64,000 nucleotides of DNA. Origin: Candidatus Woesearchaeota archaeon (lineage in GTDB: Archaea > Nanobdellota > Nanobdellia > Woesearchaeales > WJKL01). The position numbers were made by a program, and so were the translations under genes. The stretch spans positions 1,479 to 65,478 of the forward strand of contig WJJM01000039.1 of assembly GCA_014729675.1 (NCBI GenBank), in the 5' to 3' direction. Positions 2 to 30,416 of this stretch are shown one piece after another. The notes under the pieces were generated by a model. The model was given only the letters and a program-made list of their open reading frames with translations. It was not told where the DNA came from and made no database searches. Within the stretch, counting starts at the first letter, position 1, and every line of letters starts with the position of its first letter.

Positions 2-946
2 TTAAGGCATCTTGGAGCTCAGGGTCCTACTTATTCAGGGGTAATCAGTTATATAAATGGCCTTAATGCAAACCCTGCTTTTAATGAGTTTGCATCTGAT
101 TGGCATCTTGCATCGCAGACTGAAATGGATTTTCTTATAAATAATTACTCTCTTGATAATATTAGTTCTCATTTTGGTTATGCTAAGTTTCAACAGTCAG
201 GAGGTTCAAGAAAAAGGTGGTATTACGGCAGATATGAAAATGTGCCCTCGTCAGGATATCACAGCAGATGGAGATTTATCAAGGACTATGATGATTCCTA
301 TTATAATATTGGTTTTGATTCAGTTGATGACACTTCAAGAACATGGGATACTGCAGCCTGGATAACAGCAACTTTTAATTCTTATAATGTTACTAAGCCG
401 GCTGGTTCAGGATATGATTTGTATGATTCATATGGAAATTCAATTGTTAATTCCACTTACAAGAAAACTATAATTGCACAGATAGGTGGAGATGTTAAGG
501 TTGAATTTGAGATAAATGCAAGCATAAACTTAAGTGAAGTTTTTGTTGATGCAGATTCTACAAGTACAGTCGTTGCTAATCTTGGAGAGGTAGATGGAGT
601 TACTGGGAACCATACTTTATATGTGCCTGTTGTTGAAGAGATAGGAGTTTATGTATGTCCTGATGCTGAAACATTATCTGAGATAACAACTTCTTGTTCA
701 GGATATGAGCTGTTTGATTATGCTACTGAATGTGATGGAAATACAGCAAAGAATGTTGGAGGAGATAGTGTTATATGCGAGATAGTCTCAGGCAACTATA
801 AATTAAGTGGATTGACTGGATCGGGCGGAGGAGATTATGATCTTCTTGAAGGAGGTTCTGTCCCTGAATTCTCTACAATTGGGATGGTTCTTGCTGTGAT
901 GATTGCAGGAATAGGAATTGTGTTAGTTGTTAAGAAAAGAAAATAA
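2..946 (+). CDS. Secreted surface protein with C-terminal PEF-CTERM-like sorting signal (5-prime partial; frame is open to window start)
   Basis: Frame of ORF 125..946 has no stop back to nt 2. C-terminus GGSVPEFSTIGMVLAVMIAGIGIVLVVKKRK = PEF motif + TM helix + basic tail. Confidence 0.6.
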   Translation, partial: LRHLGAQGPTYSGVISYINGLNANPAFNEFASDWHLASQTEMDFLINNYSLDNISSHFGYAKFQQSGGSRKRWYYGRYENVPSSGYHSRWRFIKDYDDSYYNIGFDSVDDTSRTWDTAAWITATFNSYNVTKPAGSGYDLYDSYGNSIVNSTYKKTIIAQIGGDVKVEFEINASINLSEVFVDADSTSTVVANLGEVDGVTGNHTLYVPVVEEIGVYVCPDAETLSEITTSCSGYELFDYATECDGNTAKNVGGDSVICEIVSGNYKLSGLTGSGGGDYDLLEGGSVPEFSTIGMVLAVMIAGIGIVLVVKKRK

Positions 947-1001
947 ACAACAGAAACATTTTTAAATAATTTTGTTTTTATATTTGAAATAGAGGTTTTT
1001 T

Positions 1002-4000
1002 ATGAAAGAGGGGTCAGATAGAAAAAACAGACTATTAAAGGCATTGCCTTTGGTCATAACTATCATCTTGATGGTTGTCTTGTTCTTTAGCTTAAGCAAT
1101 CTTCTTGGATCTTCTATAGATGTTAAGGATGAAGATGGAAATATAGTTGGAAAGTTTATCGTAGAAGAGAGAGAAGATGGAAAGTATGATCTTAGCCTTG
1201 AAAGTTCAGGTTATTCAGTGGGATCCTCTTCAGAAGAGATTGTCAGCAGTGTAGAAATAAAAGGTTCAGAAACTGATTCTATAAATTCAAGATTGGGCTA
1301 TGTTGATGACAATATGATAAACACTCAAGTTTTTGCAGTTGAAAATGCAAATGTTGAATCTGCAGAGATAACTGTTGAAAAGTTTGGAGATGTTAAACAT
1401 ATATACAAATGCGTTGATTTTGACATCGATAATTTTAGATGCAATGATTGGGAAAAAACAGATATTCCTTTCATCGATAATGGAGAGAGTATAACTTTTA
1501 CTGTAGATGGTTTTTCTGGATATGGTGGAGGAGCTGATATCTTTATCGGATGGGACAAGAAGATAGACTATGTTGGTGAGCATGACAGAGCTTATGATGT
1601 TGTTGTAGATAGTAATGATGATGTATATGTGGTTGGCAGATTGAGTCAAAATCAAACATTTAACTATGATCAGGACTGGTGGATAAAGAAATATAACAGG
1701 ACTGGTTATGAGTTATGGGAGAAAATATATAATAGAAATGGTGGTGATGAAGCTATAGCTGCTGCTTTGGACTCTGATGATAATATCTATATTGCAGGGA
1801 CTGCAGAAAATATAGTTAATGTTTCAAGCGGTGTTGATTGGTGGATAAAGAAACTGGACAGTTCAGGAAATGAGATTATAGTGGGATGGAATAAATCTTT
1901 CAGCGGAGATAGTTTGCTTGGGAATGATTATCTTCATGATATTGCAGTGGATTCTGAAGATAATGTTTATGTCGCAGGATATGGGATTGATCTTATCAGT
2001 GGAGGATCAAATTATGATCCCTGGTTAATGAAATTTAATTCTTCAGGTCATAAAGAATGGGAAAAAATATATAACTTTGGTTCTCCTGCAGAGTTTCAGG
2101 ATATTGGGCTGGATTCTGAGGATAATGTCTATGTAGTGGGTAGCACTTCAGCATCACCTCTAGAAAAAGGATGGCTTATAATGAAATTCAGCCCTTCTGG
2201 AAATGGATATTGGAATAAGACCCTTGATCTTTCACAATACGGCTCTGGCGCTTATGCAGTTGCATTAGATGATGAAGATAATATTTATGTGGGTGGCTTT
2301 GCTACCAATTATGTATCTGAAATTCCTACTAGCTCGGCAGATGTGGTGATAAAGAAATTCAATTCAAGCGGAATTGAAGATCCAAATTTGAACTTGAGTT
2401 TTGATTATAACTGGCAAGCTGATATCATCAGATCGATGATTATAGAAAATGGATCTCTTTATACTGCAATACAAGCTGGACAATCTTCTGGAGATTCTAT
2501 GTGGGGCATAAAAAAATTCAATCTTTCAGGTGATGAAGATCCTAATTGGAATATGACATTTATCAGTGAAGCTATCACTAGCACATATAGCCATGCTATC
2601 CTTTTTGGAATAGATTCTGATAGTTTTAATGATATATATGTGGCTGGATTTGGGACTGATCTTGTAGATGATGATAGCGGTAATGATTGGTGGATAAAGA
2701 AATTTTCAGGGAATTTAACACAAGCAGAGTATAATGAATCACTCTTAAAAGATGTTATAATCGAGCTTGTTGAGCCTTCTTCAAACTCAGAAGTTGAAAA
2801 AAATAAATTCTTTGATTTTACTGTAAATGTTACATGCACAGATGATGAAGATTGTGGTCTGCTTAATGTAAGCCTTGATCCGGTATCATGGTGGGATGGT
2901 GATTGGAGATATAGAAATACTATAACAATCCCAAGTGGAAAGGTAAGTTCTGATCTTGAAGATTTTCCTATGCTTGTGAAGTTTGATTCAGATGATATTG
3001 ACTTTACAGATGCAAAATCAGGAGGAGAGGATATAAGATTTTTAGATTCTGATGAGAATCTTCTTTCATATGAGATAGAAAGATGGGACAGTTCAGAGCA
3101 GAAAGCTGAAGTTTGGGTTAAAGTTCCTGTTATTAGTTCAACTGAATCTACTGTATTGTATCTGTATTACGGCAATGATGATGCTTCAGATGCTCAGGAT
3201 CCTGATGATGTATGGGATGATAATTTTAATGGTGTTTGGCACTTAACAGAGAATGTTTCTGGAACTGGTGATACTGGAGTATATATTGATTCAACAGACA
3301 ACAACAATGACGGAACAGATTATGTTTCTTCTGATTCTAAAATCGGAAAAATACAAGGAGGACAGGGATTTGATGGGGATGATTATATAGATGTCCCTGA
3401 TGATTCTAGTTTGGACAATTCAGTGTATACTATAACTGCATGGATCAATATGAGCAGTGGAGGATATCAACTTGATGGAATATTTGCCGCACAGACCTAT
3501 GATTATATTATTGCAGGGGGAAATGGAGATTTTGAAGCTATAAGGGGTAATAAATATTTTAAAGATGTGGGAACTAATCTAGATGATGGCCAATGGCATC
3601 ATGTTGTGTATAAATATGATGGTGTGGATGATCTTTTCTTTATAGACGGCATATCTGAAACTCCAGGAGCAACAGGTTCAGCATCTTATACTGATATGAT
3701 AGCAATTGGAAGAAGCAAATGGGGTTATTTTGATGGAGATATAGATGAAGTCAGGGTTTCTAATTTTGCAAGAAGTGATGCATGGATTATAGCTGAATTT
3801 GATAATACTAATGATCCTTCAGATTTTTATAATTTAGGAGAAAAGGAAATTGGATCAAAATCAGGATTAATATCTACTGAAATAGGAGAAACTCCATTTT
3901 ATACAACAACAGACAACCCATATCAGGTTGATCTTGATTCAGGCGAGTCTCAGCTTGTAACCTGGGAAGTTAATGCTACAGGATTATACAGCATAGTACA

Positions 4001-6974
4001 TGAGTTTTTCGCTTATGCATCTTTAGATGATAATTTATATATATTGAATGAGAGTGAGAGGATAAATATAACCATAACAGACCAAGAAGATCCATCTGTT
4101 GAGCTTGAATCTCCTGCAGATGAAAAGGTTCTTACAGTAACTTTTGAAACATTTGTATGCAATGTTTCAGACAATTATGGCCTTTCAAATATCACTCTAA
4201 TGGTATGGGATTCTGAAGGTAATGTTGAATATTCATATAGTAAAGAATCAGCAGGTTCAGAAGATAATCTTGAGAAACAATATGTTTTCAGTTCTTCAGA
4301 GGATTACGATTGGAACTGTATAGCTTATGATAGTTTTGGCAACAGAGGAATTGCAGGTTCAAACAATTCACTGAATGTACAGATACCTTCTTTAAATATT
4401 CAGCTTGTAGATCCTGATTCAAATGTGAGCTGGACACAAAATAAATTTGGAAATTTTACTGTGAATTTTTCATGCAATGATTATGATTGCGGAGAGGTTA
4501 ATGTAACCTTAGATCCTTTGGCTGAATGGAGCAATTCGAAACTTGTAAAGATAGACAATGCAGGCAATACTGAACTGATAAATAATAGTGTAAAGATAAT
4601 TTTTGATACACAGAGTGAGATAGCAGAAGGAGATATGCAAGATGATTGTGATGATATAAGATTTATGGATACAGATGATTCAACTGCCTTAGATTATTGG
4701 CTTGATTCTGATACATGTGATACAGAAGAAACAGAGATATGGGTCAAGATACCATCTATAGATTCTAACAGCATAAAGTACATCTATCTTTATATGGGCA
4801 ATGAAAGCGCTGAACAGGGATCAGATGCTAAAGGTGTTTTTCCTAATCAAAATATAAACCATCCTGACTTAAGCGGATATACTGATGTCATATATGTCGA
4901 TGCTGAACTTGGAAATGATATTTCAGGAGATGGAAGCTTAGACAATCCTTATCAGACATTGAGAGAAGCGGCAGATTATGATGATCCAGATGATGCTATT
5001 TATCTTATGCCTGGAACTTATGAAGAAAGAGGGGGTGGCCCTACATTAGATGGGGATCTTATAGGTGCTTTAGGTGGAAAGGTGATTATCAATGCAGGTG
5101 TTTATGGAAATACATGGAGAAGAGCAATATGGCTTACAAACAATGAGCATAATTTCTATAATATCATCTTTGAGCATTATAATGGATCAGACGGATCAAA
5201 CTATTATTTTGGAGATGTGGGTTCTGACAGCATATATTTTTACAACTGTGTTTTCAGCAATGCGGTCTATGATGGGCTTTATCAAGACAGTTATTTCAGG
5301 AATATAGATTATGTGTACTTAAACAATTCATTTGAGAATACGTATCTTAAGTCATTGGGGCAGGCAGAGGTAAAAATATCATTGAATTCAGTAATGAATG
5401 ACTCTGAGTCCTTTACACTTCAGACTACAAGCCTTTATGCAAATGAAACCTCCTATGATTCAGAGTGGCAATTGACATCAGGAGAGTGGGAAAATGAAGG
5501 GACAGGTACAAATCCTGATGGAACTAAGGCCAATATAGGAGTATATGGAGGGGAATATGCATGGGGTTATTGGGGTCCTGCAACTTCTGTAAATGAGAAA
5601 GGCAGAGTTTCAACTATAGTTGGAGATATTCCTTTTTATACAATAACTGACAATCCTTATATAACTGATCTTGATGCAGGTGAATCTCAGATTATAACAT
5701 GGCAAGTAAATGCTACAGGACCTATAGATAATACTTATCTTTTCTTTGTCCATGCAAACTCAACAAGTGACAGCACTATAAATTACAGGACTGAAGATAT
5801 CTATATAACTATAACAGATGAAGGATGCACTGATTCAGATTCAGATGGTTATGATGCTTGTGATCTGAACGGAAATCCGATAGCTGGATGTGATAATCCC
5901 TGTGATTGCAATGATACAGAATTAAATATCAATCCTGGAGAAGAACAGTGCGGGAACTGCATAGATGATGATGCAGATACATATATTGATTATCCTGCTG
6001 ATACAGATTGTTCAAGTTTGGATGATACAACTGAAGATGATGGAGCAGGAGGGAATGAACCTGTATGGGCTGACATATCAGTTGTTGTAACTGATGAAGA
6101 CCTTACAGACACAACGACTACGCTTTCAGATTATATTGTTTCAGGCTGCGATCTTGGCTGCACTTATACTGTTCAGTCAGATTCTGCAGGCATAACTGCA
6201 GATGTAATAAACGGAAATACATTAAGAGTAGTTCCTGATGGAAATTACAGGGGTTATGGAAATGTAACTGTAAGAGCTGCAAATCTTGAAGGGCATTCAG
6301 ATGAATATATTGATGTTAAAGTGTTATCTATACCTGACTTTGGAACAGATATACAGTTGGATGAAAACTATTTTAACGGAGAGAATACCACTGATATTAG
6401 TGCTCTTACAGATATTGTTGGAGGATATCAAAATGAATCTGATCCTCTTCATGCATACTCTAATTCAGTATATTTCTTCTCATTAGAAAGAACACTCATA
6501 GGAAAGGTTACATTTGAAGGATATTTCCCTTTTGTATGGGATCTTCTGCTTTCAGCGTCAAATGTTGTTATAGAGGAAGGATACATCTCTGTTGACTCTG
6601 ACTCTATATTCAAAAAAGTAAGCTACTGGATACATCATCCAATGGCAAAAGTTGAACTTTACAATATAGATCCTGCAGAATATGTGACTGATGGAGAAGG
6701 AGTTCCGATAGTTTATAGGGATGAAGATTTCCATCTTGCAGATGAGGACAGAACAGGCTGGCCTGAATGTGGATCAAATTGTGAGCCAGTTACATGGAAC
6801 AGTACAACCGGAACACTTACCTTTTATGTAGATGAGTTCTCATCACATACTCTTGATAAGTCTAATGGACAAGATCCTCCAGGAGGAGTTCCTGAGTTTT
6901 CTGCAATAGGTATGATCATCGCTATGATTCTAATGGGGATAGGCATGACCATAATTATACATAAGAAGAAATGA
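1002..6974 (+). CDS. Giant (1990 aa) secreted multidomain surface protein with PEF-CTERM anchor; beta-propeller WWIKK repeats, two DUF2341-like jellyroll modules, LamG-like lectin domain, beta-helix-like segment, Cys-rich module
   Basis: AGAGG SD 7 nt before ATG; N-terminal TM/signal LLKALPLVITIILMVVLFF; about 8 repeats of the D..D.VYV.G...(D)WWIKK motif; IRF.D.....L.YEIE.WD....A.VWVKVP......IYLYYGN twice; LamG-like WHHVVYKYDGV; C-terminal GGVPEFSAIGMIIAMILMGIGMTIIIHKKK. Confidence 0.7.
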   Translation: MKEGSDRKNRLLKALPLVITIILMVVLFFSLSNLLGSSIDVKDEDGNIVGKFIVEEREDGKYDLSLESSGYSVGSSSEEIVSSVEIKGSETDSINSRLGYVDDNMINTQVFAVENANVESAEITVEKFGDVKHIYKCVDFDIDNFRCNDWEKTDIPFIDNGESITFTVDGFSGYGGGADIFIGWDKKIDYVGEHDRAYDVVVDSNDDVYVVGRLSQNQTFNYDQDWWIKKYNRTGYELWEKIYNRNGGDEAIAAALDSDDNIYIAGTAENIVNVSSGVDWWIKKLDSSGNEIIVGWNKSFSGDSLLGNDYLHDIAVDSEDNVYVAGYGIDLISGGSNYDPWLMKFNSSGHKEWEKIYNFGSPAEFQDIGLDSEDNVYVVGSTSASPLEKGWLIMKFSPSGNGYWNKTLDLSQYGSGAYAVALDDEDNIYVGGFATNYVSEIPTSSADVVIKKFNSSGIEDPNLNLSFDYNWQADIIRSMIIENGSLYTAIQAGQSSGDSMWGIKKFNLSGDEDPNWNMTFISEAITSTYSHAILFGIDSDSFNDIYVAGFGTDLVDDDSGNDWWIKKFSGNLTQAEYNESLLKDVIIELVEPSSNSEVEKNKFFDFTVNVTCTDDEDCGLLNVSLDPVSWWDGDWRYRNTITIPSGKVSSDLEDFPMLVKFDSDDIDFTDAKSGGEDIRFLDSDENLLSYEIERWDSSEQKAEVWVKVPVISSTESTVLYLYYGNDDASDAQDPDDVWDDNFNGVWHLTENVSGTGDTGVYIDSTDNNNDGTDYVSSDSKIGKIQGGQGFDGDDYIDVPDDSSLDNSVYTITAWINMSSGGYQLDGIFAAQTYDYIIAGGNGDFEAIRGNKYFKDVGTNLDDGQWHHVVYKYDGVDDLFFIDGISETPGATGSASYTDMIAIGRSKWGYFDGDIDEVRVSNFARSDAWIIAEFDNTNDPSDFYNLGEKEIGSKSGLISTEIGETPFYTTTDNPYQVDLDSGESQLVTWEVNATGLYSIVHEFFAYASLDDNLYILNESERINITITDQEDPSVELESPADEKVLTVTFETFVCNVSDNYGLSNITLMVWDSEGNVEYSYSKESAGSEDNLEKQYVFSSSEDYDWNCIAYDSFGNRGIAGSNNSLNVQIPSLNIQLVDPDSNVSWTQNKFGNFTVNFSCNDYDCGEVNVTLDPLAEWSNSKLVKIDNAGNTELINNSVKIIFDTQSEIAEGDMQDDCDDIRFMDTDDSTALDYWLDSDTCDTEETEIWVKIPSIDSNSIKYIYLYMGNESAEQGSDAKGVFPNQNINHPDLSGYTDVIYVDAELGNDISGDGSLDNPYQTLREAADYDDPDDAIYLMPGTYEERGGGPTLDGDLIGALGGKVIINAGVYGNTWRRAIWLTNNEHNFYNIIFEHYNGSDGSNYYFGDVGSDSIYFYNCVFSNAVYDGLYQDSYFRNIDYVYLNNSFENTYLKSLGQAEVKISLNSVMNDSESFTLQTTSLYANETSYDSEWQLTSGEWENEGTGTNPDGTKANIGVYGGEYAWGYWGPATSVNEKGRVSTIVGDIPFYTITDNPYITDLDAGESQIITWQVNATGPIDNTYLFFVHANSTSDSTINYRTEDIYITITDEGCTDSDSDGYDACDLNGNPIAGCDNPCDCNDTELNINPGEEQCGNCIDDDADTYIDYPADTDCSSLDDTTEDDGAGGNEPVWADISVVVTDEDLTDTTTTLSDYIVSGCDLGCTYTVQSDSAGITADVINGNTLRVVPDGNYRGYGNVTVRAANLEGHSDEYIDVKVLSIPDFGTDIQLDENYFNGENTTDISALTDIVGGYQNESDPLHAYSNSVYFFSLERTLIGKVTFEGYFPFVWDLLLSASNVVIEEGYISVDSDSIFKKVSYWIHHPMAKVELYNIDPAEYVTDGEGVPIVYRDEDFHLADEDRTGWPECGSNCEPVTWNSTTGTLTFYVDEFSSHTLDKSNGQDPPGGVPEFSAIGMIIAMILMGIGMTIIIHKKK

Positions 6975-6979
6975 TTATC

Positions 6980-8035
6980 TTATTTATTCTTTTTTGAAGG
7001 TTTCTTTTTCATCCATCTTTTGAACAATGACAAGATGATGAAGAATGTTACAGCAAACCATATTATCCTTGCATTAGAGTGGAAAAGCTGTATGCCCAAT
7101 CCTGGGAAAAATATCCATACAAGGAAAAATAAAAATACCCTCATAGAGTCAAGCAAAAAATGAAGTAAAAATCCCATAAAAAAACCAAGAGCATATCTTA
7201 TCCTGTTAAGCTCCTTATAATTTACAACTCCATACAATAGCCAAAAGAAGATAAATGAGTAAAACATAACTTTTCCACTGCATCCAAGACTGTGATTTAC
7301 TGCTTGAGTCTTGTATCTTAGAGTGAACCCTAGATATTCAACAGTCATAGTCATCGAAGTGAATATTTTGCTTAGAAAAAAAGCTCCTAATTTTGCAGAA
7401 TGTACAGCAAGAAGAGCAAAGTAATAGCTGATTGTATGCATTATAGTCCCTTCTGATCTCACATGTTCAAAATAGTTGATAAATAAAAAAACATAGGAAG
7501 ATGCAAGTGCAAGAGATATAAGGATCTCTTTATACAGTTTTTTTGCAAGTTTCTTTATATCCTGTATAGAAAAGAGCAACAATACAGCAGATGATACATA
7601 GATGAATCCTGCCAAGTGCCAAAGCAAACTTGCCAATATCAGATTTTCCTGGGCAAAGGTTGTTGATTTTCCCAAAAATATCGTAAACCAAAATATAAAT
7701 GCATACGAGATTGCATGAAAAGGAATATATCTAAGATTGATCACATCTTTTTCCGATCTGAAATTTTTGATCTTTTTAAATCCTATCAGTATGAATATTA
7801 GCGGAAGATAAAAAAGAAAATCCTGGGTCAATGATCCTCTTATCAAAGGAGAAGCCTGATAAACAAGGGCAAATCCGCCCCTATTTGCAGTATCTACTCG
7901 AACTCCAAGAAAAAAAGCTTCTAATAGTGTAAGAATAATAAAAAATGTAATTTTTGAAAGGAGCAGATTATCTTTAATCTTTGCATATATTTTGTCTTTA
8001 AAAGAGATAATCTCTTTTGGCGCATATCTTTTCAA
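6980..8035 (-). CDS. Polytopic membrane protein, candidate archaeosortase (exosortase/archaeosortase family) for the PEF-CTERM substrates
   Basis: 8 or more predicted TM helices; CSG motif (NHSLGCSGKV) and a downstream Arg (DSMRVF) spaced like the Cys/Arg active-site pair of exosortase-family transpeptidases; convergent with and 6 nt from the giant PEF-CTERM gene. Confidence 0.4.
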   Translation of the reverse strand: MKRYAPKEIISFKDKIYAKIKDNLLLSKITFFIILTLLEAFFLGVRVDTANRGGFALVYQASPLIRGSLTQDFLFYLPLIFILIGFKKIKNFRSEKDVINLRYIPFHAISYAFIFWFTIFLGKSTTFAQENLILASLLWHLAGFIYVSSAVLLLFSIQDIKKLAKKLYKEILISLALASSYVFLFINYFEHVRSEGTIMHTISYYFALLAVHSAKLGAFFLSKIFTSMTMTVEYLGFTLRYKTQAVNHSLGCSGKVMFYSFIFFWLLYGVVNYKELNRIRYALGFFMGFLLHFLLDSMRVFLFFLVWIFFPGLGIQLFHSNARIIWFAVTFFIILSLFKRWMKKKPSKKNK

Positions 8036-10352: not shown

Positions 10353-10595
10353 TGTATTTTGATTAAGGAATATTTTCTAATAAAGTTATTTGCCATGGAT
10401 TGAGATCTTTAAAATCCTGATCGCAAGGCAGGCTTTAAAAAATATATCCAATCTGGCTTAGGGATAGGATCAATAATCTTTAATCTTTTATCAAGAAAAT
10501 CATGAACTAAGTTATTAAAATTTAAATATATCTTATTATCTTTATCTTTGCATCAAAACTAAATATTTTTAAAGCTGAGTGTTTTGCTTTTTATC

Positions 10596-11390
10596 ATGAG
10601 GGGGTTAACTATAGATCTAGAGGACTGGTTCCAGGTATATAATTTCAGCAGGATAATAAAACAGGAAGACTGGGGCAAGCAGAGAGAGAGGGTCATAAGG
10701 AACACTGACAGGCTGCTGGATGTTCTTGATGAATACGATACTAAAGCTACATTCTTTGTCCTTGGATGGATAGCTGAAAAATATCCTTTTCTTGTGAATG
10801 AGATCGCGACAAGAGGCCATGAGATAGGATGTCATGGTTACAGCCATAAGCCTGTATTTCTTATGAGCAAAGAAGAGTTTGAGCATGATCTTGAAAGATC
10901 TGTAAAAGCAATAAAAAAAGCATGCGGAGCAAGGCCAAAAGGATACAGGGCTCCAAGTTTTTCTATAACAAAAAAGACATTGTGGGCATTGGATGTCCTG
11001 AAGGAAAATGGATTTGAGTATGATTCTTCTATGATGCCCACTGACAAACATCCTGATTATGGGATAAAAGGAATTCCACGGAAACCATTTATGATAAAAG
11101 GCATAAAAGAGATTCCTTTGACAACAGTACATGGACTGCCTGTAGGTGGAGGATATTTCAGGGCATACCCTTATATCTTGACAAGGTATCTGATGAAAAA
11201 AGACAAGAATTCTATATTTTATATCCACCCATGGGAGTTTGATCCAAAGATTCCAAGATACAATCTTCCTTTGTTGAAAAGGTTCAGGCATTATGTTGGA
11301 CTGAAAAAAACGAGAAAGAAGTTCAGGAAACTATTGAGGGATTTTAGATTTGATAAGCTGGATAATATCATCAAAAAGGACTTCTCTTGA
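10596..11390 (+). CDS. Polysaccharide deacetylase (NodB-homology), exosortase/PEP-CTERM-locus-type subfamily-like
   Basis: N-terminal LTIDLEDWFQV motif and TFFVLGWIAEKYP...GHEIGCHGYSH NodB core. ORF track starts at TTG 10584; ATG at 10596 preferred. Confidence 0.65.
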   Translation: MRGLTIDLEDWFQVYNFSRIIKQEDWGKQRERVIRNTDRLLDVLDEYDTKATFFVLGWIAEKYPFLVNEIATRGHEIGCHGYSHKPVFLMSKEEFEHDLERSVKAIKKACGARPKGYRAPSFSITKKTLWALDVLKENGFEYDSSMMPTDKHPDYGIKGIPRKPFMIKGIKEIPLTTVHGLPVGGGYFRAYPYILTRYLMKKDKNSIFYIHPWEFDPKIPRYNLPLLKRFRHYVGLKKTRKKFRKLLRDFRFDKLDNIIKKDFS

Positions 11391-13053
11391 AATATCTTGT
11401 ATGCAAAAGTTTTTCTGACTTTTTAGACAAAGGTTTGCCTAAGAATTCTTCATATATCTGTTTTATCATAGGATTTTCATGAGATTTTCTTAAAGGCAAT
11501 CTTTTGTCTTCTTCATAGATTGCTTCTATTCTTTTCTTTATCTTTTCTTTTTCATAAGGCAAAGGCTGACCTCCTCCACTTATACAGCCTCCAGGGCATG
11601 CCATGATCTCTATGAAATCAAATTTATCTTTCTCTTTAAGAAGTTCTCTTGCGTTTTTCAGGCCATTTGCAACTGCAAACCTTATCTTTTTTCCGTCAAG
11701 ATCAACTTTCCCTGTCTTTATACCATCTAACCCTCTTGTCTCTTTAAAATCAACACTTTTAAGCTCTTTTCCTGTTGCCAGTTCATAAGCTGTCCTTAAT
11801 GCTGCTTCCATTACCCCTCCTGTTGCGCCGAATATAGCTGCAGCTCCTGTGGACATGCCAAGCACAGGGTCAAAATCTTCATCAGAAAGATTTTTGAAAT
11901 CAATGTTGAAGTGCTCTATAAGCCTTGCTGTCTCTCTTGTTGTCAGAACATAATCAACTCCTGACTTCAGTTCAGGACGGGTCGACTCAAACTTCTTTGC
12001 TGTACAGGGCATTATGGATACAACTATTATATCCTCCTTAGGAATGTTTGCCTTTTTAGCATAATATGTTTTTATAAGGCTGCCAAGCATCTCGTGAGGA
12101 GATTTGCATGATGACATGTTCTTGTTTTTTATGAGATCATGATAGAAATGTTCCATGAACTTTATCCAGGCAGGGCAGCAGGTTGTTATCATAGGAAATC
12201 CTTTATTTTCTTTTATCCTCTTCAGAAGTTCAGAGCCTTCTTCCATGATCGTAAGGTCAGCTCCGAAGTTTGTGTCAAAAACTTTGTCAAAACCGCATCT
12301 TCTTAATGCAGCAACCATCTTTCCTGTAACTAAAGTTCCAGGAGGAAGATCAAATTCCTCTCCTAATGATGCTCTTATAGATGGAGCAGTCTGGACAACA
12401 ACATGTTTCTTTTTGTCTTTAAGAACCTTCAAAACTTCCTGCAGATGCTCTCTTTCTGAGATGGCTCCTACAGGGCATGCAGCTATACACTGTCCGCATT
12501 TTATGCATGCTACATCATTTAAGTTCTTTTCAGAATAAGGAGTTACGTGTTCATGATGAGCTCTTTGTGCAAAGTCTATAGCCCATGTTGACTGTATCTT
12601 GTCGCATACAGCAACACATCTTCCGCAATTTATGCAAAGATTATCATCTCTTATTACAGAAGCTCCTAAGTCAACCTTATATTTCTTTTTTGGATCAAAT
12701 CTTACTTCTCTAATGCCCAGTTCATGGATCAGTCTGCAAAGATCATGATTCTTGTTTTCTCTGAAGCATTTATCCATATGTTCTGGCATGAGAAGCTCTG
12801 CATTTACTTTTCTTGCCCTTTTTACTTTCTCAGAGTTTGTCTTTATCTCCATACCTTCTTTTGGATATGAACTGCAGGATGTTATCAGTTTTCCATCTTT
12901 TGTCTCAACAATACATAACCTGCATCTTGCTTCTGGCTCAAGGTTTTCCTGATAGCATAATGTAGGGATATTTATTCCGTTATCTTTGCATACTTGAAGA
13001 ATAGTCTTTCCTTCTTCACATTCAATTTTTTTGTTGTTGATCTTTATATTCAT
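11371..13053 (-). CDS. hydA: [FeFe]-hydrogenase catalytic subunit (HydA/HndD-like) with N-terminal 2Fe-2S and 4Fe-4S ferredoxin domains
   Basis: H-cluster motifs L1 TTCCPAW, L2 MPCTAKKFE, L3 EIMACPGGCISGGGQP; CINCGRCVAVC and CIKCGQCIAACP ferredoxin motifs. Confidence 0.85.
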   Translation of the reverse strand: MNIKINNKKIECEEGKTILQVCKDNGINIPTLCYQENLEPEARCRLCIVETKDGKLITSCSSYPKEGMEIKTNSEKVKRARKVNAELLMPEHMDKCFRENKNHDLCRLIHELGIREVRFDPKKKYKVDLGASVIRDDNLCINCGRCVAVCDKIQSTWAIDFAQRAHHEHVTPYSEKNLNDVACIKCGQCIAACPVGAISEREHLQEVLKVLKDKKKHVVVQTAPSIRASLGEEFDLPPGTLVTGKMVAALRRCGFDKVFDTNFGADLTIMEEGSELLKRIKENKGFPMITTCCPAWIKFMEHFYHDLIKNKNMSSCKSPHEMLGSLIKTYYAKKANIPKEDIIVVSIMPCTAKKFESTRPELKSGVDYVLTTRETARLIEHFNIDFKNLSDEDFDPVLGMSTGAAAIFGATGGVMEAALRTAYELATGKELKSVDFKETRGLDGIKTGKVDLDGKKIRFAVANGLKNARELLKEKDKFDFIEIMACPGGCISGGGQPLPYEKEKIKKRIEAIYEEDKRLPLRKSHENPMIKQIYEEFLGKPLSKKSEKLLHTRYFKRSPF

Positions 13054-14192
13054 CTTGCTGTCCTTTTTCTTGTCTTCTTCTCTTTAACCCTTTCTTCAAA
13101 CTCACTTCTGAAATATTTTAGAGCATTGAGAAGGTGGTTTGTTGAGGTCTGGCCAAGGCCGCAGAAGGATGTCTCCTTTATGACTTCTGCAAGCTCTTTT
13201 AGAGTGTCAAGATCTTTCATGTCTGCATTTTTCATAGATATGTTTTCAAGTATGTTCAGGATACGATATGTGCCTTCTCTGCAGGGAGTGCATTTTCCGC
13301 AGGATTCAAACTCATAAAATTTGGCTATGTTTGTAACTAAATCTACTATCGATTGTTTTTCATCTACTGCTATTATAGTGCAGGAGCCAAGCATGCATTC
13401 TTTTCCGCAAATAGCATCTGGGTGAAGAGGGATGTCACAATGAGGGATACACCCTCCAAAGCATCCAAAGAACACTGCTTTTATAGGATTTTTTGGTCTT
13501 CCAAGCTTAATCAGATCACATAAAGGAGTTCCTAAAGGAAGTTCATATACTCCTGGTCTTGTAACATTTCCGGACAATGAATATAATCTTAAGTTCTTGT
13601 TCCAATCATCATAGAGCATAGCCAGAGGAACATTTGCTAAAGTTTCAACATTATTGATCACTGTTGGCTTGCTATATAATCCTCTTACTGTTGGAAAAGG
13701 AGGTTTTGTTCTTGCCTGTCCTCTTTTGCCCTCTATTGATTCCAGGATCGCGGTTTCATCTCCGCATATATATGCTCCTGCTCCGATAACTATCTCAATA
13801 GGTGTTTCTGATCCTGTCCTGTTTTTTATCTTAGTTATTGCTTTTTTTAGTTTTGATTCTAAATAGTCATATTCTCCTCTTAAGTAGATGAATGCTTTTT
13901 TTGCTTTGATTGCATAGGCTGCTATAAGGATGCCTTCTATAAGTGCTTCTGGATTTTTTTCTATTATAAATTTGTCTTTGAAAGTTCCTGGCTCTCCTTC
14001 GTCAGCATTGCAGATGAGATATTTTTCAGAATCCTTTTCTTTTGAGACCATCTCCCATTTTGACCCTGTTGGAAAGTTAGCCCCTCCTCTTCCTGAAAGG
14101 CCTTTTTTCTTTATCAGGTCTATAGTCGCTTTTGAACCTAGTTTTATTGCTTTTCTATATGCTCTTTGAAGAGGTTTTCTTAGTATCTGCAT
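13050..14192 (-). CDS. hydB: NuoF-like NAD(P)H-binding flavoprotein subunit of hydrogenase (HydB/HndC-like)
   Basis: GRGGANFPTGSKW FMN/NADH motif; ESCGKCTPCREG 4Fe-4S motif; 4-nt overlap with hydA. Confidence 0.8.
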   Translation of the reverse strand: MQILRKPLQRAYRKAIKLGSKATIDLIKKKGLSGRGGANFPTGSKWEMVSKEKDSEKYLICNADEGEPGTFKDKFIIEKNPEALIEGILIAAYAIKAKKAFIYLRGEYDYLESKLKKAITKIKNRTGSETPIEIVIGAGAYICGDETAILESIEGKRGQARTKPPFPTVRGLYSKPTVINNVETLANVPLAMLYDDWNKNLRLYSLSGNVTRPGVYELPLGTPLCDLIKLGRPKNPIKAVFFGCFGGCIPHCDIPLHPDAICGKECMLGSCTIIAVDEKQSIVDLVTNIAKFYEFESCGKCTPCREGTYRILNILENISMKNADMKDLDTLKELAEVIKETSFCGLGQTSTNHLLNALKYFRSEFEERVKEKKTRKRTAR

Positions 14193-14596
14193 TATTTTAG
14201 CCCCTTTATTATTTCGTCAATCTTCTCTTTTGTCAAAGAAGTATACACTTCTTTGCCTATCTTCATGGCAGGAGCTTTATCACAGCAGCCGATGCATGAA
14301 CAGATATACAATGAAAATCTTTTGTCTTCTGTTGTCTGGCCTGATTTGATTTTAAGTTTTTTTTCAAGATATTTTATTATGTTTAATGAACCATTAAGAT
14401 AGCAGGAAGGAGAGTTGCATATCTCTATTATATGTTTTCCCTGAGGTTTAGTGTGGAGCTGTGAATAAAATGTTGCTGCAGCATATATCTTTGCTACAGG
14501 AATATTCATCTTTTTGCTGAGCTTTTTCATAGAATCTTCTGAGATATAGCCTTTTTTTCCCTGTATCTGTTTTAATTCTTTTAATAATAAAGACAT
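14192..14596 (-). CDS. hydC: NuoE-like thioredoxin-fold 2Fe-2S subunit (HydC/HndA-like)
   Basis: CNSPSCYLNGS...CSCIGCCDKAP cysteine pattern; internal ATG 14596 preceded by AGAGGTG SD preferred over the 218-aa ORF whose first 84 aa are low-complexity. Confidence 0.6.
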   Translation of the reverse strand: MSLLLKELKQIQGKKGYISEDSMKKLSKKMNIPVAKIYAAATFYSQLHTKPQGKHIIEICNSPSCYLNGSLNIIKYLEKKLKIKSGQTTEDKRFSLYICSCIGCCDKAPAMKIGKEVYTSLTKEKIDEIIKGLK

Positions 14597-14647
14597 TTTA
14601 CACCTCTTATTCTGATGGAGTGTTCTTTTGTTTAAATAGTTTTTTAT

Positions 14648-15274
14648 TTGATAATTGTAATGATGAATCATGATTTTAGAAAAATATTTAAACTGAACAA
14701 GTATCTTTTTATTATGTATGAATTTGAGAATGTAAAGAAGTTTTTTGACATTTCTGATTATAATTATAGTTCCATGTATAAATATATAGAATTGTTTATC
14801 TTTTCTGCTGCAGGATTTTTTATACCTTTTTTTATAGGGCATCCTCAAATAGTTGTGGGGATAATAGTGAACAGTTTTCTGATAAGTTCTTCATTAAAGT
14901 TTAAAGATTATAAGATATTGCCTGTAGTTGTGATGCCTTCATTGGGGGCTTTGTCAAGAGGGTTGTTGTTTGGGCCATATACTCCTTTTTTATTTTATAT
15001 GATTCCTTTTATTTGGATTGGAAATTATCTTTTAGTCTATGCTTTTAGGCAGTTTAAGCTTAAGAAGAAGCTTAATTATTGGCTTAGTCTTGGGATGGGT
15101 ATCGTTTTCAAGGCAGGATTCTTGTTTTTAACTGCTTACATATTCTATATTTTTGGAGTTGTTCCAGCTGTATTTTTGACTGCGATGGGAGTTATGCAGG
15201 CTATAACTGCTTTTGGAGGAGGAGTTGCTGCTTTTGGTTATGAGAAAATCAGCAGATGGGTCAATAGAAGTTAG
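14648..15274 (+). CDS. Integral membrane protein, hypothetical
   Basis: Multiple hydrophobic helices; no motif recognised. Confidence 0.35.
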   Translation: MIIVMMNHDFRKIFKLNKYLFIMYEFENVKKFFDISDYNYSSMYKYIELFIFSAAGFFIPFFIGHPQIVVGIIVNSFLISSSLKFKDYKILPVVVMPSLGALSRGLLFGPYTPFLFYMIPFIWIGNYLLVYAFRQFKLKKKLNYWLSLGMGIVFKAGFLFLTAYIFYIFGVVPAVFLTAMGVMQAITAFGGGVAAFGYEKISRWVNRS

Positions 15275-23625: not shown

Positions 23626-23646
23626 ATAAATAAAGAATAAACAAAT

Positions 23647-23740
23647 AGCCCTGCCCGGATTTGAACCGAGGTCCCAGGACCCAAAATCCTGGATGATTGG
23701 CCATTGTGCACAGCTTAAAGCTGTTCTACACTACAGGGCT
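23647..23740 (-). tRNA. tRNA-Gln (anticodon TTG) with a noncanonical 21-nt intron in the D-loop
   Basis: Manual fold: acceptor AGCCCTG/CAGGGCT, anticodon stem CAGGA/TCCTG with loop TTTTGGG, T-arm CTCGG-TTCAAAT-CCGGG. Relative to the paralog at 24794, AACAGCTTTAAGCTGTGCACA is inserted after GTGTAG. Confidence 0.6.
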
Positions 23741-24990: not shown

Positions 24991-25446
24991 ATGAATCTTA
25001 GGCTTTTTAAACAGGTTATCAGAAGAAGTAATGCTCTTAGGCAGAAGGCTCAGATAAGCATGGAGTACCTTATCATAGTGGGTTTTGTGGCTGCAGTTAC
25101 TGTTCCTATGATAATAATATTTACAACACATTCTACTGAGATGAATGAGAGCATAATATCAAATGAGGCTGAAAACATAGCTGCAAAGATAGTGGATGCA
25201 GCTGAGTCTGTATATTATCTTGGAGAATTCTCAAAGACCACATTCAGGGTGAGCATGCCTAAGAACATAAATTCTATAACTTTGGGGAATAATGAGGTTG
25301 TTATCTTTGTAGATAAGATGAATGGTTTTGATGAAGTTGTCAAGTACTGTCCTGTACCTATAAACGGAAGTGTGTCCAAGGAGCCGGGACTGTATGACAT
25401 AGTGGTAGAGTCAAGAGGGGATTATGTGTGGGTAGAAAGCAACTAA
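24991..25446 (+). CDS. Type IV pilin-like protein with class III (prepilin) signal peptide
   Basis: Leader ending ...RQKA then QISMEY (Gln+1, Glu+5) followed by hydrophobic helix LIIVGFVAAVTVPMIIIF. Confidence 0.6.
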   Translation: MNLRLFKQVIRRSNALRQKAQISMEYLIIVGFVAAVTVPMIIIFTTHSTEMNESIISNEAENIAAKIVDAAESVYYLGEFSKTTFRVSMPKNINSITLGNNEVVIFVDKMNGFDEVVKYCPVPINGSVSKEPGLYDIVVESRGDYVWVESN

Positions 25447-25835
25447 CTTTATCTGGAAAAGCTCAAGTTTCTATGGAGTTTGTATTTTTGGTGAGTCTGG
25501 CTTTTATGATCATGACGGTATTCATAGCTTCGACAAGAAGCGAGTTTGATGAGTTGAGGAGCGAGGAAGAGAGGACATTGGTCAGGGATGTGGGGATGAT
25601 GGCACATTCTGAACTGGTTATAGCGTCAAATGTTGAGGACGGTTACAGGAGGATCTTTGATATTCCTGAAAAGCTTGACGAATCTATAGAATATGACATT
25701 GAGATATCAAACAATACTCTTTTGGTATATACTGACGATTATGAATCTGTGTTCAATGTGCCTTCAGTCACAGGACAGATACAGAAAGGCAACAACAGAA
25801 TAAACAAGACAGGCGGAACAATATATTTGAATTAA
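25428..25835 (+). CDS. Type IV pilin-like protein with class III signal peptide
   Basis: GTG start; ...SGKA then QVSMEFVFLVSLAFMIMTVF; overlaps preceding pilin gene by 19 nt. Confidence 0.55.
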   Translation: MGRKQLTLSGKAQVSMEFVFLVSLAFMIMTVFIASTRSEFDELRSEEERTLVRDVGMMAHSELVIASNVEDGYRRIFDIPEKLDESIEYDIEISNNTLLVYTDDYESVFNVPSVTGQIQKGNNRINKTGGTIYLN

Positions 25836-25836
25836 G

Positions 25837-29143: not shown

Positions 29144-29226
29144 GAAAATGCAGTATAGACGTACACTTAGGAGATTATTGGCAAAAAGAAAGCTTTTAAA
29201 TATGAATTTAGATATTATCAGTTAAT

Positions 29227-30399: not shown

Positions 30400-30416
30400 G
30401 TTAAAAGGGGTGTAGT

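Follow-up and report, generated by a model that had tools for sequence, protein, structure and literature searches.

Does the [FeFe]-hydrogenase operon of this woesearchaeal contig encode an electron-bifurcating enzyme, or one that deals with NADH only? The window, that is, the whole stretch of DNA analysed, is 64,000 nucleotides long. A sequence-only reading had treated an archaeal [FeFe]-hydrogenase as a surprise, a view that is outdated, as trimers of Woesearchaeota were published in 2021 (Huang et al., PMC8421398) and an archaeal survey over nine phyla, including the trimeric type, in 2024 (Greening et al., PMC11216029). The operon itself is of this already known kind, the Woesearchaeota/DPANN 'group A3' trimeric [FeFe]-hydrogenase; it is the same enzyme type, with a membrane-protein gene (hyd6TM) alongside and maturases absent. 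Those two papers and a third (PMC11606122) call the woesearchaeal enzymes bifurcating group A3 from gene context alone. The available sections of PMC8421398 and PMC11216029 say nothing of the short HydB, its non-bifurcating residue signatures, the loss of the His-cluster motif or the four-Cys motif described below, and we found no literature pairing 'Woesearchaeota' with 'non-bifurcating'.

The operon and its host

The genes and the region between the two transcription units are as follows.
hydC, 14192..14596, minus strand: 134 aa, NuoE-like thioredoxin-fold [2Fe-2S] subunit (PF01257, 2Fe-2S_thioredx, E 2e-44)
hydB, 13050..14192, minus strand: 380 aa, minimal NuoF-like diaphorase (PF01512, PF10531, PF10589)
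hydA, 11371..13053, minus strand: 560 aa, catalytic [FeFe]-hydrogenase subunit (Pfam Fer2_4, Fer4 families, Fe_hyd_lg_C, Fe_hyd_SSU)
hydC/hyd6TM divergent intergenic region, 14597..14713, no strand: 117 bp, AT-rich
hyd6TM, 14714..15274, plus strand: about 186 aa, conserved six-helix membrane protein; the ORF opens at 14648

The three hydrogenase genes form one minus-strand run in the order hydC-hydB-hydA. As the sequence-only reading had proposed, they are a HydABC/HndACD-like three-gene operon. Their family matches are far beyond chance, and the gene overlaps at 13050-13053 and 14192 were read directly in the sequence: hydB and hydA share an ATGA (...AGATGAAT), and hydC and hydB meet in TAATG with a 1-nt overlap (...AAATAATGCAG). 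The full hydC ORF spans 14192-14848. We placed the start at 14596 because of a GAGGTG Shine-Dalgarno sequence at 14601-14606, the Pfam match and homologues that align from residues 1-4. The intergenic region, which carries TTTAAATA-like TATA candidates besides this Shine-Dalgarno sequence, is a candidate promoter region. HydA, HydB and HydC would presumably assemble into a heterotrimer.

HydA consists, in order, of an N-terminal [2Fe-2S] domain, a degenerate His-cluster region, two [4Fe-4S] clusters, the H-cluster domain and a fused small-subunit tail. It matched Fe_hyd_lg_C of Pfam (E 3.5e-94), TIGR02512 (507.5 bits, cut-off 405.95) and NCBIfam NF040763, 'NADH-dependent [FeFe] hydrogenase, group A6' (788.9 bits, cut-off 765). 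The best solved relative was the bifurcating T. kivui HydA1 (8a6t_A, E 1.5e-183). The HydA motifs were located as follows.
H-cluster motif P1 TTCCPAW, 12166..12186, minus strand: HydA residues 290-296, aligned to TSCCP of T. kivui HydA1
H-cluster motif P2 MPCTAKKFE, 11986..12012, minus strand: residues 348-356, aligned to homologues
H-cluster motif P3 EIMACPGGCISGGGQP, 11563..11610, minus strand: residues 482-497, aligned to homologues
Degenerate His-cluster motif, 12736..12780, minus strand: H92-MDK-C96-FR-E99-NKN-H103-DL-C106

The H-cluster signatures are thus all present, as had been claimed; in P1, Cys292 is the proton-relay residue and Cys293 a cluster ligand. HydA is of the catalytic type and not Nar1-like. 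Together, these results confirm that this small DPANN archaeon has a genuine, intact operon for a three-subunit HydABC/Hnd-like [FeFe]-hydrogenase of group A.

The host is archaeal, judging from the gene content of the window and the 100% identity of HydA to an NCBI protein of Candidatus Woesearchaeota archaeon. The archaeal markers include uS15 with an S13/S15 N-domain, XPD, a DHH-CID RecJ/GAN-like protein, an ATP-dependent DNA ligase, diphthine and diphthamide synthases and archaeal helicase domain 4. A tRNA match of 106 nt in the window suggests an intron. In a neighbour-joining tree, the woesearchaeal clade was monophyletic. The enzyme nests among bacterial group A sequences, and Greening 2024 (PMC11216029) inferred that archaea received group A enzymes from bacteria several times. 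An old horizontal acquisition is plausible because of this nesting. The operon GC (0.36-0.40) matches that of the window, and nothing points to a transfer of recent date.

The diaphorase subunit and the cofactors

HydB matched Complex1_51K (Pfam, E 4e-45) and combines an SLBB domain with a site for FMN and NADH and a single [4Fe-4S] cluster equivalent to N3; its FMN/NADH motifs are retained, as is the CxxCxxC...C cluster. The Pfam scan returned PF01512, PF10531 and PF10589 only, with no N-terminal [2Fe-2S] and no C-terminal 2x[4Fe-4S] domain. Consistently, HydB aligned solely to residues 176-564 of T. kivui HydB (630 aa) and 154-533 of A. woodii HydB (599 aa). The Foldseek TM-score of the HydB model, normalised to the target, was 0.78 for A. 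aeolicus NuoF vs. 0.52-0.59 for bifurcating HydB. Three motifs of HydB bear on its type.
NADH-site motif EGEPG-T70-F-K72-D, 13974..14000, minus strand: non-bifurcating signature
FMN-site motif GAGA-Y141-ICGDETAILESIEG, 13728..13784, minus strand: Tyr is non-bifurcating, Phe bifurcating
Four-Cys motif C244-x3-C248-x13-C262-x3-C266, 13395..13463, minus strand: HydB SLBB domain, clade-specific

By the criteria of Losey 2020 (PMC7311640), extra FeS domains, A/E plus M, F, and GGPSG mark a bifurcating HydB. T70/K72 was aligned against EGDPGAFMD of A. mobile HydB and ESEPGSFKD of T. thermophilus Nqo1, and FGCFG occupies the place of GGPSG. HydB is in the non-bifurcating state on all four criteria (no extra FeS domains, T70/K72, Y141, FGCFG). 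Schut 2022 (PMC9304861) likewise described non-bifurcating homologues as lacking clusters B2-B5, with A202/M204 being Bfu-specific, and according to Furlan 2022, every characterised bifurcating [FeFe]-hydrogenase has the HydB C-terminal domain, whereas the non-bifurcating NAD+-dependent ones do not. The pattern is not peculiar to this genome: 117 of 119 database HydB homologues (346-406 aa) have T/K, Y and a non-GGPSG loop, and all woesearchaeal genome loci surveyed have the non-bifurcating pattern. Judged by its sequence, HydB is of the simple NADH-only build, and not of the electron-bifurcating build assumed in the literature.

The other two subunits were compared likewise. HydC retains Cx4C...Cx3C (Cys 60, 65, 101 and 105), and its best solved relative was T. 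kivui HydC (8a6t_C, E 2.9e-31). In the His-cluster region of HydA, one Cys of the canonical HxxxCxxCxxxxxC is missing, namely the middle one, and the Pfam scan of HydA gave no PF10588 match. The canonical motif was found in none of the 120 closest HydA homologues but is kept in all bacterial relatives. In T. maritima HydABC, the His-ligated [4Fe-4S] lies off the direct electron wire.

The cofactors added in characterised bifurcating HydABC, namely the HydB [2Fe-2S], the HydB 2x[4Fe-4S] and the HydA His-ligated [4Fe-4S], are all absent or degenerate here. The C-terminal 2x[4Fe-4S] of HydB is a ferredoxin-interacting domain, and the His-ligated cluster couples two HydA protomers.

A probable NADH-only hydrogenase and its alternatives

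Our preferred reading, with a probability of about 0.7, is an enzyme of the Syntrophomonas wolfei Hyd1ABC kind: a reversible, non-bifurcating NADH:H+ oxidoreductase that does not need ferredoxin. Plain NuoEF plus [FeFe]-hydrogenase has been shown by experiment to be non-bifurcating in S. wolfei, S. aciditrophicus and C. churrovis. In the proposed mechanism, NADH would deliver hydride to FMN in HydB, and electrons would pass singly through the HydB [4Fe-4S] to the N-terminal [2Fe-2S] of HydA, and then through the two ferredoxin-type [4Fe-4S] to the H-cluster, where protons would become H2. The HydC [2Fe-2S] would lie next to the flavin, in the position that N1a has in complex I. Glycolytic NADH would be re-oxidised by venting H2. 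Because NADH-to-H2 is uphill under standard conditions, the reaction would require a low H2 partial pressure, and the host would then depend on neighbours that consume H2; if the model is true, glycolytic NADH re-oxidation is tied to low H2 pressure. We infer the coupling stoichiometry and the in vivo direction from the genes. Besides the build of HydB, we counted for the NADH-only model the NF040763 match, the absence of a separate ferredoxin-type gene from the window and the linkage to GAPDH and PGK. In one related locus, hydA overlaps an NAD-dependent GAPDH gene that is followed by PGK, and GAPDH neighbours the operon in about 5 loci.

The earlier 'possibly electron-bifurcating' assignment fared poorly, since HydB fails every feature tested and HydA lacks the canonical His-ligated cluster. 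A group A3 HydABC that makes H2 by the joint oxidation of NADH and reduced ferredoxin, or runs in reverse, is improbable. It would fit the HydA/NuoF/NuoE gene organisation, which is HydDB's A3 criterion, and further points count for it and against the NADH-only model: the closest solved HydA is a bifurcating one, and the four-Cys motif could be an extra redox centre, perhaps a replacement cluster, that opens a second electron path. Against it stand the three non-bifurcating residue signatures, the missing N-terminal [2Fe-2S] and C-terminal 2x[4Fe-4S] that every characterised bifurcating enzyme has, and the lack of a nearby ferredoxin-type gene. A natural control is provided by a Nanoarchaeota contig, on which the streamlined type is immediately preceded by a canonical bifurcating-type hydCBA. 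The HydB of this canonical operon (574 aa) has a Trx-like [2Fe-2S], AFM, F and 2x Fer4, and its HydA does match PF10588. The adjacency of the two types argues for different functions.

The same chemistry might run towards H2 uptake, with environmental H2 reducing NAD+ as reductant for a host of low catabolism. Non-bifurcating HydAB and Hyd1ABC work in both directions and perform H2-dependent NAD+ reduction, which is exergonic under standard conditions by the redox potentials, and the anoxic sediments and mats from which, by their record titles, many MAGs of relatives come would suit it. We regard this direction as unlikely, given that several relatives have the operon fused to GAPDH-PGK, a sign of glycolytic NADH disposal, that published reconstructions show fermentative Woesearchaeota yielding lactate, acetate and H2 (PMC8421398, PMC11606122), and that the window holds no obvious NADH-consuming respiratory module.

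Maturation raises a further alternative, in which HydA lacks the [2Fe] subcluster and is hydrogenase-silent or has another redox role. The window does lack hydE/F/G, as previously noted: Pfam scans found no Radical_SAM or HydF domain in its ORFs, no reading frame of at least 120 aa contains CxxxCxxC, and Walker A checks agree. In 24 related loci, too, no HydEFG gene adjoins the operon, so that activity in vivo would depend on some other maturation route; this counts against the NADH-only model as well. This lack is near-universal in archaea, as the 2021 and 2024 papers described, with the full set in 5 of 130 hydrogenase-encoding archaeal genomes (Greening 2024, PMC11216029). In the same study, maturase-less archaeal HydA bound the H-cluster and made H2 after semisynthetic maturation, in assays that covered groups A1, B and E only. 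The ligands and second-sphere motifs P1-P3 are strictly kept across a deep HydA clade (63-100% identity), which is unexpected for a dead site, and in situ transcription of the [FeFe]-hydrogenase genes of Woesearchaeota has been reported (PMC11606122). A silent HydA is therefore very improbable.

Known systems, the four-Cys motif and hyd6TM

The operon most resembles the non-bifurcating NADH-dependent bacterial type, the S. wolfei Hyd1ABC-like one. Both have a HydA with M3-type N-terminal FeS domains, a beta subunit that is a plain NuoF core (FMN plus one [4Fe-4S]), a NuoE-like gamma subunit and the T/S-x-K, Tyr and non-GGPSG signatures. The bacterial short-HydB operons that we found differ in a longer HydB (about 407-415 aa vs. 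380 aa) without the four-Cys motif, and bacterial relatives retain the canonical His-ligated [4Fe-4S] of HydA. Unlike the bacterial type, the operon stands beside a divergent S-component-like membrane gene in an archaeon without detectable HydEFG. With bifurcating HydABC (Thermotoga maritima 7p5h, Thermoanaerobacter kivui 8a6t, Acetobacterium woodii 7q4v), it shares subunit homology, the hydC-hydB-hydA order, the direct wire (H-cluster, two [4Fe-4S], [2Fe-2S], HydB [4Fe-4S], FMN) and the HydC [2Fe-2S], but it has neither the N-terminal [2Fe-2S] of HydB nor the C-terminal B3/B4 domain and Zn hinge region of that subunit, nor a canonical A4, and its NADH/FMN-site residues are non-bifurcating. 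In the complex I NADH module (NuoE/NuoF/N-terminal NuoG; Nqo2/Nqo1/Nqo3), HydB superposes on the whole of A. aeolicus NuoF and T. thermophilus Nqo1 and shares S/T-x-K and Tyr; HydC is equivalent to NuoE and the HydA N-terminus to that of NuoG. The output differs, being an H-cluster and not a quinone-reducing chain, and the counterpart of the His-ligated N5 is degenerate.

The four-Cys motif stands where bifurcating HydB has the GGPSG loop. Of 141 woesearchaeal HydB, 125 have the complete set of four Cys, whereas C244, C262 and C266 are missing from all 55 other homologues. The region was modelled with a pLDDT of 67-84 and is a putative extra metal site for Zn or Fe-S.

hyd6TM is transcribed divergently from hydC. 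Sequence searches gave no similarity to solved proteins or to Pfam/NCBIfam families. No EcfA/EcfT genes were found in the window, whose sole Walker A belongs to a pilus ATPase. The match to ECF-transporter S components lies in the predicted fold, which is closest to the riboflavin S component RibU.

Operon layout and the catalytic subunit

The sequence-only reading had described a three-subunit operon of the HydABC/Hnd-like kind, and the three minus-strand ORFs were recovered together with their overlapping junctions:

14192-14596, minus strand: hydC, NuoE-like subunit; the ORF opens at 14848 and the ATG at 14596 was taken as the start
13050-14192, minus strand: hydB, NuoF-like subunit, ORF of 380 aa
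11371-13053, minus strand: hydA, H-cluster catalytic subunit, ORF of 560 aa

The hydC start was placed at 14596 because a Shine-Dalgarno sequence (GAGGTG) is read four bases upstream, the NuoE-family Pfam match of the product starts at this ATG, and the homologues of the product at 22 related loci align from residues 1-4. The HydC protein matches 2Fe-2S_thioredx in Pfam. The hydC/hydB junction (...AAATAATGCAG) is a TAATG overlap and the hydB/hydA junction (...AGATGAAT) is an ATGA overlap; therefore, we consider hydC, hydB, and hydA to be translationally coupled. [quoted passage not shown] A polysaccharide deacetylase/DUF3473 gene (10584-11390, plus strand) converges on hydA, and the two 3' ends share 20 bp (11371-11390).

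Membership in catalytic group A was judged by the motifs P1 (TSCCPxW), P2 (MPCxxKxxE), and P3 (ExMxCxxGCxxGGGQP), with the four cluster cysteines and the proton-relay cysteine. The 560-aa HydA displays the complete group A pattern, with TTCCPAW as P1, MPCTAKKFE as P2, and EIMACPGGCISGGGQP as P3, in agreement with the earlier description of intact H-cluster signatures. Its Pfam matches are Fer2_4, ferredoxin-type 4Fe-4S families, Fe_hyd_lg_C (PF02906; 315.5 bits, E 3.5e-94), and Fe_hyd_SSU (PF02256; 87.6 bits). HydA also scored 507.5 with TIGR02512 '[FeFe] hydrogenase, group A' (cut-off 405.95) and 788.9 with NF040763 'NADH-dependent [FeFe] hydrogenase, group A6' (cut-off 765), a group name that is used unevenly, for bacterial NADH-dependent hydrogenases in one paper and for acetogen genomes in another. 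A non-catalytic Nar1/NARF-like homologue, or a protein with missing H-cluster cysteines, had been named as the finding that would speak against a hydrogenase. Examined by motif, this alternative is excluded because TTCCPAW, MPCTAKKFE, and EIMACPGGCISGGGQP are intact. P1 reads TSCSPGW in most bacterial HydA relatives (L023-L080 of the loci compared) and T(T/S)CCP(A/G)W in the window (12166-12186) and the Woesearchaeal clade, a Cys/Ser difference at the second cysteine position.

The beta subunit and the accessory clusters

Losey et al. 2020 (PMC7311640) separate bifurcating from non-bifurcating beta subunits by four traits. The bifurcating type has extra FeS domains, Ala/Glu plus Met at the NADH site, and Phe at the FMN site, and its SLBB domain carries a GGPSG loop, whereas the non-bifurcating type has Thr/Ser plus Lys/Ser/Ala at the NADH site and Tyr at the FMN site. 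Schut et al. 2022 (PMC9304861) define the Bfu family by the ferredoxin-type domain in BfuB and report that clusters B2-B5 are missing from non-bifurcating homologues. According to Furlan et al. 2022, the C-terminal domain of HydB (B3/B4) is present in all characterised bifurcating [FeFe]-hydrogenases and missing from their non-bifurcating counterparts.

The HydB of the window is a bare NuoF core with Complex1_51K, SLBB, and NADH_4Fe-4S matches. Neither a Fer4 family nor a thioredoxin-like domain was found in it by Pfam, and a motif search of HydB for CxxCxxCxxxC was negative. The protein aligns only to residues 176-564 of T. kivui HydB (630 aa), 154-533 of A. woodii HydB (599 aa), and 180-556 of T. 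maritima HydB (626 aa). Its N-terminal end falls at about T. kivui residue 176, leaving out the N-terminal thioredoxin-like [2Fe-2S] domain, and its C-terminal end lies a few residues past the end of the T. kivui match (residue 564), leaving out the C-terminal 2x[4Fe-4S] ferredoxin-type domain (IPR017896; clusters B3/B4). The AlphaFold model of HydB (pLDDT 87.3) spans the whole of A. aeolicus NuoF, with a target-normalised TM-score of 0.78, but just half or so of the chains of bifurcating HydB (0.52-0.59). HydB thus has the make-up of a non-bifurcating beta subunit, a NuoF core only, with FMN and one [4Fe-4S].

The residues were compared at T. maritima HydB 232/234, equivalent to A. mobile A202/M204 (NADH site), and at T. 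maritima HydB 367 (Phe, FMN site). In the alignment, the bifurcating A. mobile HydB reads EGDPG-A-F-M-D, GAGA-F-VCG, and GGPSG, and the non-bifurcating Nqo1 of T. thermophilus reads ESEPG-S-F-K-D and GAGA-Y-ICG. The window HydB reads EGEPG-T-F-K-D, GAGA-Y-ICG, and FGCFG, that is, T70, K72, Y141, and no GGPSG. None of the bifurcating residues (Ala/Glu with Met, Phe with GGPSG) is present, and each position agrees with the non-bifurcating set (Thr/Ser, Lys/Ser/Ala, Tyr, no GGPSG). Therefore, domain content and residues together indicate the non-bifurcating state by all four traits of Losey et al.

The site of GGPSG is occupied by a four-cysteine motif, C244-x3-C248-x13-C262-x3-C266, in the SLBB domain (residues 244-266; window 13395-13463, minus strand). 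All four cysteines occur in 125 of the 141 HydB proteins of the main Woesearchaeal clade, and the motif is specific to this clade: it is absent from 55 other (bacterial/other) homologues, in which no Cys occurs at three of the four positions. The motif resembles a metal site and may hold Zn or an Fe-S cluster.

The His-ligated [4Fe-4S] of HydA, named FS4C in CpI, has degenerated. In the window HydA, the canonical HxxxCxxCxxxxxC is replaced by H92-MDK-C96-FR-E99-NKN-H103-DL-C106, and PF10588, the Pfam model of this region, gave no match; the canonical His-ligated cluster expected of HydA in bifurcating (Bfu) enzymes is thus not seen. The canonical motif was found in none of the 120 closest HydA homologues; 71 carry H-x3-C-x5-7-H-x2-C and the remainder are more degenerate. 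The motif is kept in all bacterial HydA relatives examined. In T. maritima HydABC this cluster, named A4, lies off the direct wire and joins two HydA protomers, and the direct wire runs from the H-cluster through A1, A2, A3, and the HydB [4Fe-4S] to FMN. Compared with T. maritima HydABC, the window enzyme keeps exactly the direct wire and the HydC cluster, and nothing else. No separate ferredoxin gene or gene resembling the HydB C-terminal domain was found in the 64-kb window, in which the only ferredoxin-type Cys motif lies within HydA.

Distribution, origin, and mode of action

Deposited proteins labelled 'Candidatus Woesearchaeota archaeon', encoded on a 65,792-bp contig, match HydA and HydB of the window at 100% identity; the window thus spans almost all of that contig. 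The combination of T/K, Y, and no GGPSG recurred in 117 of the 119 closest database HydB homologues (346-406 aa, median 372), and on these comparisons the streamlined HydB and HydA traits are clade-wide, not limited to one genome. In a set of 80 loci from species-representative genomes, most HydA relatives with 66-91% identity bear Woesearchaeota/Nanoarchaeota labels. The next tier (~46-55%) is almost all bacterial (Moorella/Neomoorella, Atribacterota, Dehalococcoidia, and others), apart from one Thermoplasmata MAG and two divergent loci with Woesearchaeota labels (L039 and L075). The closest non-Woesearchaeal HydA proteins, at 51-55%, come from Moorella/Neomoorella, Atribacterota, Dehalococcoidia, a MAG with a Deltaproteobacteria label, and one Thermoplasmata MAG. 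The HydB of the bacterial relatives is of three types: a long, bifurcating type with AFM/F/GGPSG; a type of ~407-415 aa with TFK/Y and no GGPSG, as in S. wolfei; and an intermediate Atribacterota type.

A phylogeny of HydA had been proposed as the way to identify the donor of the operon. In the neighbour-joining tree, the Woesearchaeal HydA proteins form a monophyletic group; its branch is long and no sister group is resolved, and therefore no donor lineage is named. The GC content of the operon (0.36-0.40) is the same as that of its surroundings and thus gives no sign of recent import; given this and the depth and monophyly of the clade, a recent horizontal-transfer island was rejected. Several loci labelled 'uncultured Methanosarcinales archaeon' (L003, L006, L009, L010, L013, L018, and L021) or 'Pseudomonadota bacterium' (L016 and L051) have HydA within the Woesearchaeal clade, and several of these MAGs also have hyd6TM, the membrane-protein gene divergent from hydC. 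Their labels are probably binning or labelling errors.

Both types of operon were found on one contig. On L015, an 8.8-kb contig from a Nanoarchaeota MAG, two hydCBA operons follow each other in tandem (558-7810). The HydB of the first (574 aa) has a thioredoxin-like [2Fe-2S] N-terminus, EGDPGAFMN, GAGAFVCG, GGPAG, and two C-terminal Fer4 motifs (2x[4Fe-4S]), and its HydA has the His-cluster motif (HDLNCVTCKKNLSC) and a PF10588 match. Judged by these motifs, the first operon is of the canonical bifurcating type; the second is of the streamlined type of the window. This co-variation of features within one DNA argues that the two types do different jobs.

Across 22 loci, the only consistently linked genes were those of the three hydCBA subunits and hyd6TM. 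At L001 (10001-13874), in a relative with a hydCBA-gap-pgk operon, hydA and the start of an NAD-binding GAPDH gene overlap, as do GAPDH and PGK. GAPDH is a neighbour in 5 of the 22 loci and PGK in 4. This arrangement links the enzyme to the glycolytic step that forms NADH.

By analogy with S. wolfei Hyd1ABC, the window enzyme would be a ferredoxin-independent, reversible NADH:H+ oxidoreductase, and we give this reading a probability of about 0.7. Conversion of NADH to H2 is uphill at standard conditions by the established redox potentials; H2 release would therefore need low H2 pressure, and the streamlined enzyme would release H2 only under that condition. The same enzyme might instead run physiologically in the uptake direction, the exergonic one under standard conditions; this is unlikely in our estimate, and the GAPDH neighbourhood points to the disposal of glycolytic NADH. 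Plain NuoEF-type partners have been shown experimentally to make non-bifurcating enzymes in S. wolfei, in S. aciditrophicus, and in the fungus C. churrovis (PMC13556243). True bifurcation is what the literature assumes. Huang et al. (PMC8421398) report conserved H-cluster cysteines and a monophyletic DPANN clade assigned to the bifurcating group A3, and a 2024 metatranscriptome study (PMC11606122) found Woesearchaeal [FeFe]-hydrogenase genes expressed in situ and called them bifurcating A3. In Greening et al. 2024 (PMC11216029), [FeFe]-hydrogenases are reported in 130 archaeal genomes of nine phyla, A3 is the most widespread type with Woesearchaeales named, and an associated 'hyd6TM' membrane gene is noted. 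The sequence-only reading had likewise called the enzyme possibly electron-bifurcating. This was not borne out by a HydB with T70/K72, Y141, FGCFG, and no extra FeS domains or by a HydA that has lost its His-cluster motif, and we consider bifurcation decidedly unlikely.

The protein might also be unmatured and inactive. As had been noted, no HydE, HydF, or HydG was found in the 64-kb window by Pfam scans and motif search, and no ORF with a radical-SAM-type CxxxCxxC motif; around the operon at 24 related loci, ~310 kb held none of the three maturases and no radical-SAM-type ORF that could be HydE/G. Greening et al. 2024 (PMC11216029) give a full HydEFG set in only 5 of 130 archaeal genomes, list the maturases as absent from 122, and propose another maturation route. 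As described there, archaeal enzymes of groups A1, B, and E, the assayed groups, which do not include A3, were active once semisynthetically matured. With these enzymes and the in situ expression on the other side, we regard an inactive protein as very improbable and retain the NADH-linked oxidoreductase as the preferred reading.

Given the papers of Huang et al., Greening et al., and the metatranscriptome study, the operon finding was already known: Woesearchaeal operons that combine an [FeFe]-hydrogenase with NuoE/NuoF partners have been published, and the lack of maturases is a recognised problem. Our literature search found no paper pairing 'Woesearchaeota' with 'non-bifurcating', and so the non-bifurcating re-reading, not the operon, may be new. 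What is added here is evidence, from motifs and domain content, for a simple NADH-only type in place of a bifurcating one; the observation in the sequence-only reading stands and its interpretation is partly supported. If the enzyme is NADH-only, these very widespread DPANN archaea of sediment and groundwater could, on thermodynamic grounds, make H2 only where H2 pressure is very low; they would depend obligately on methanogens, sulfate reducers, or other H2 consumers, and the electron balances in published metabolic reconstructions would change. Non-bifurcating NuoEF-type [FeFe]-hydrogenases, of which bacterial examples were reported in 2017 and 2020 and a fungal example in 2026, would then be known from all three domains.

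The hyd6TM neighbour and the rest of the window

14714-15274, divergent from hydC: hyd6TM, six-helix membrane protein, ~186 aa

The hyd6TM product matched nothing meaningful in Pfam/NCBIfam at E 10, and searching PDB sequences by profile likewise yielded no match even at E 10. It is predicted with high confidence to be a six-helix bundle (pLDDT 90.4), and the model is consistent with the six-helix fold of an ECF-transporter S component. It did not fall in an S-component sequence family, and neither an EcfT/EcfA partner nor an ABC ATPase was found in the 64-kb window. Weak homologues are also found next to hydA at four bacterial loci (L020, L031, L047, and L064); in the two where the whole of HydB can be seen, L020 and L047, it is of the short type.

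A supply of riboflavin for the FMN of HydB is a reasonable guess for the function of hyd6TM, and a role in equipping the H-cluster of maturase-less cells is a long shot. The wider idea that the hydrogenase module is equipped from outside the cell, with hyd6TM importing a cofactor or precursor and the four-cysteine motif forming a new redox or metal centre in place of the lost clusters, seems to us highly doubtful. In its modest version the cargo would be riboflavin for HydB; in its bold version it would be a [2Fe] subcluster precursor scavenged from the host or community, which, if true, would explain an active H-cluster in maturase-less DPANN archaea. The S-component-like neighbour, the four-cysteine motif, and the tandem L015 operons offer handles on cofactor supply in genome-reduced archaea.

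The window carries archaeal genes for uS15 with an S13/S15 N-terminal domain, XPD, a DHH-CID RecJ/GAN-like protein, ATP-dependent DNA ligase, diphthine and diphthamide synthases, an archaeal helicase domain 4 protein, and a type IV pilus locus. The diphthine-synthase-like TP_methylase gene lies at 38287-39018, and a 685-aa ORF (44877-46934, plus strand) fuses a glutamine amidotransferase/asparagine-synthase module to a Diphthami_syn_2 domain. The type IV pilus or archaellum-like locus (24991-37407, plus strand) encodes a T2SSE ATPase, two T2SSF membrane proteins, a 622-aa Laminin_G_3 protein, and several small proteins whose N-termini resemble class III signal peptides (...QAAMEFLMTYGWA...). 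Three tRNA calls were recorded, on which the two tools disagree:

23646-23715, minus strand: tRNA-Gln, found by ARAGORN and not in the Rfam list at the gathering threshold
46939-47044, minus strand: tRNA of 106 nt, found by Rfam and missed by ARAGORN
57124-57212, minus strand: tRNA of 89 nt, found by ARAGORN with a four-base 'anticodon'

The 106-nt tRNA probably has an intron, as probably does the 89-nt tRNA. In a Hel308-like ORF (50986-52557, minus strand, 523 aa), the matches are limited to Helicase_C, archaeal helicase domain 4, and HHH_5; an N-terminal DEAD/RecA1 domain was not found in this ORF, and the gene may be split, frameshifted, or mis-set at its start. Three CDP-alcohol phosphatidyltransferase paralogues (58588-59193, plus strand; 59159-59722, minus strand; 60962-61447, plus strand) share a cluster with a GT4 glycosyltransferase and a PAP2 protein that is divergent, and the region (58588-61447) looks like a lipid head-group locus. 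Large surface proteins are common in DPANN genomes. Those predicted here are a 1990-aa ORF with DUF2341, Laminin_G_3, and beta-propeller repeats (1002-6974, plus strand) and large cadherin-like and PKD proteins (53270-55522 and 55546-56652, both minus strand).
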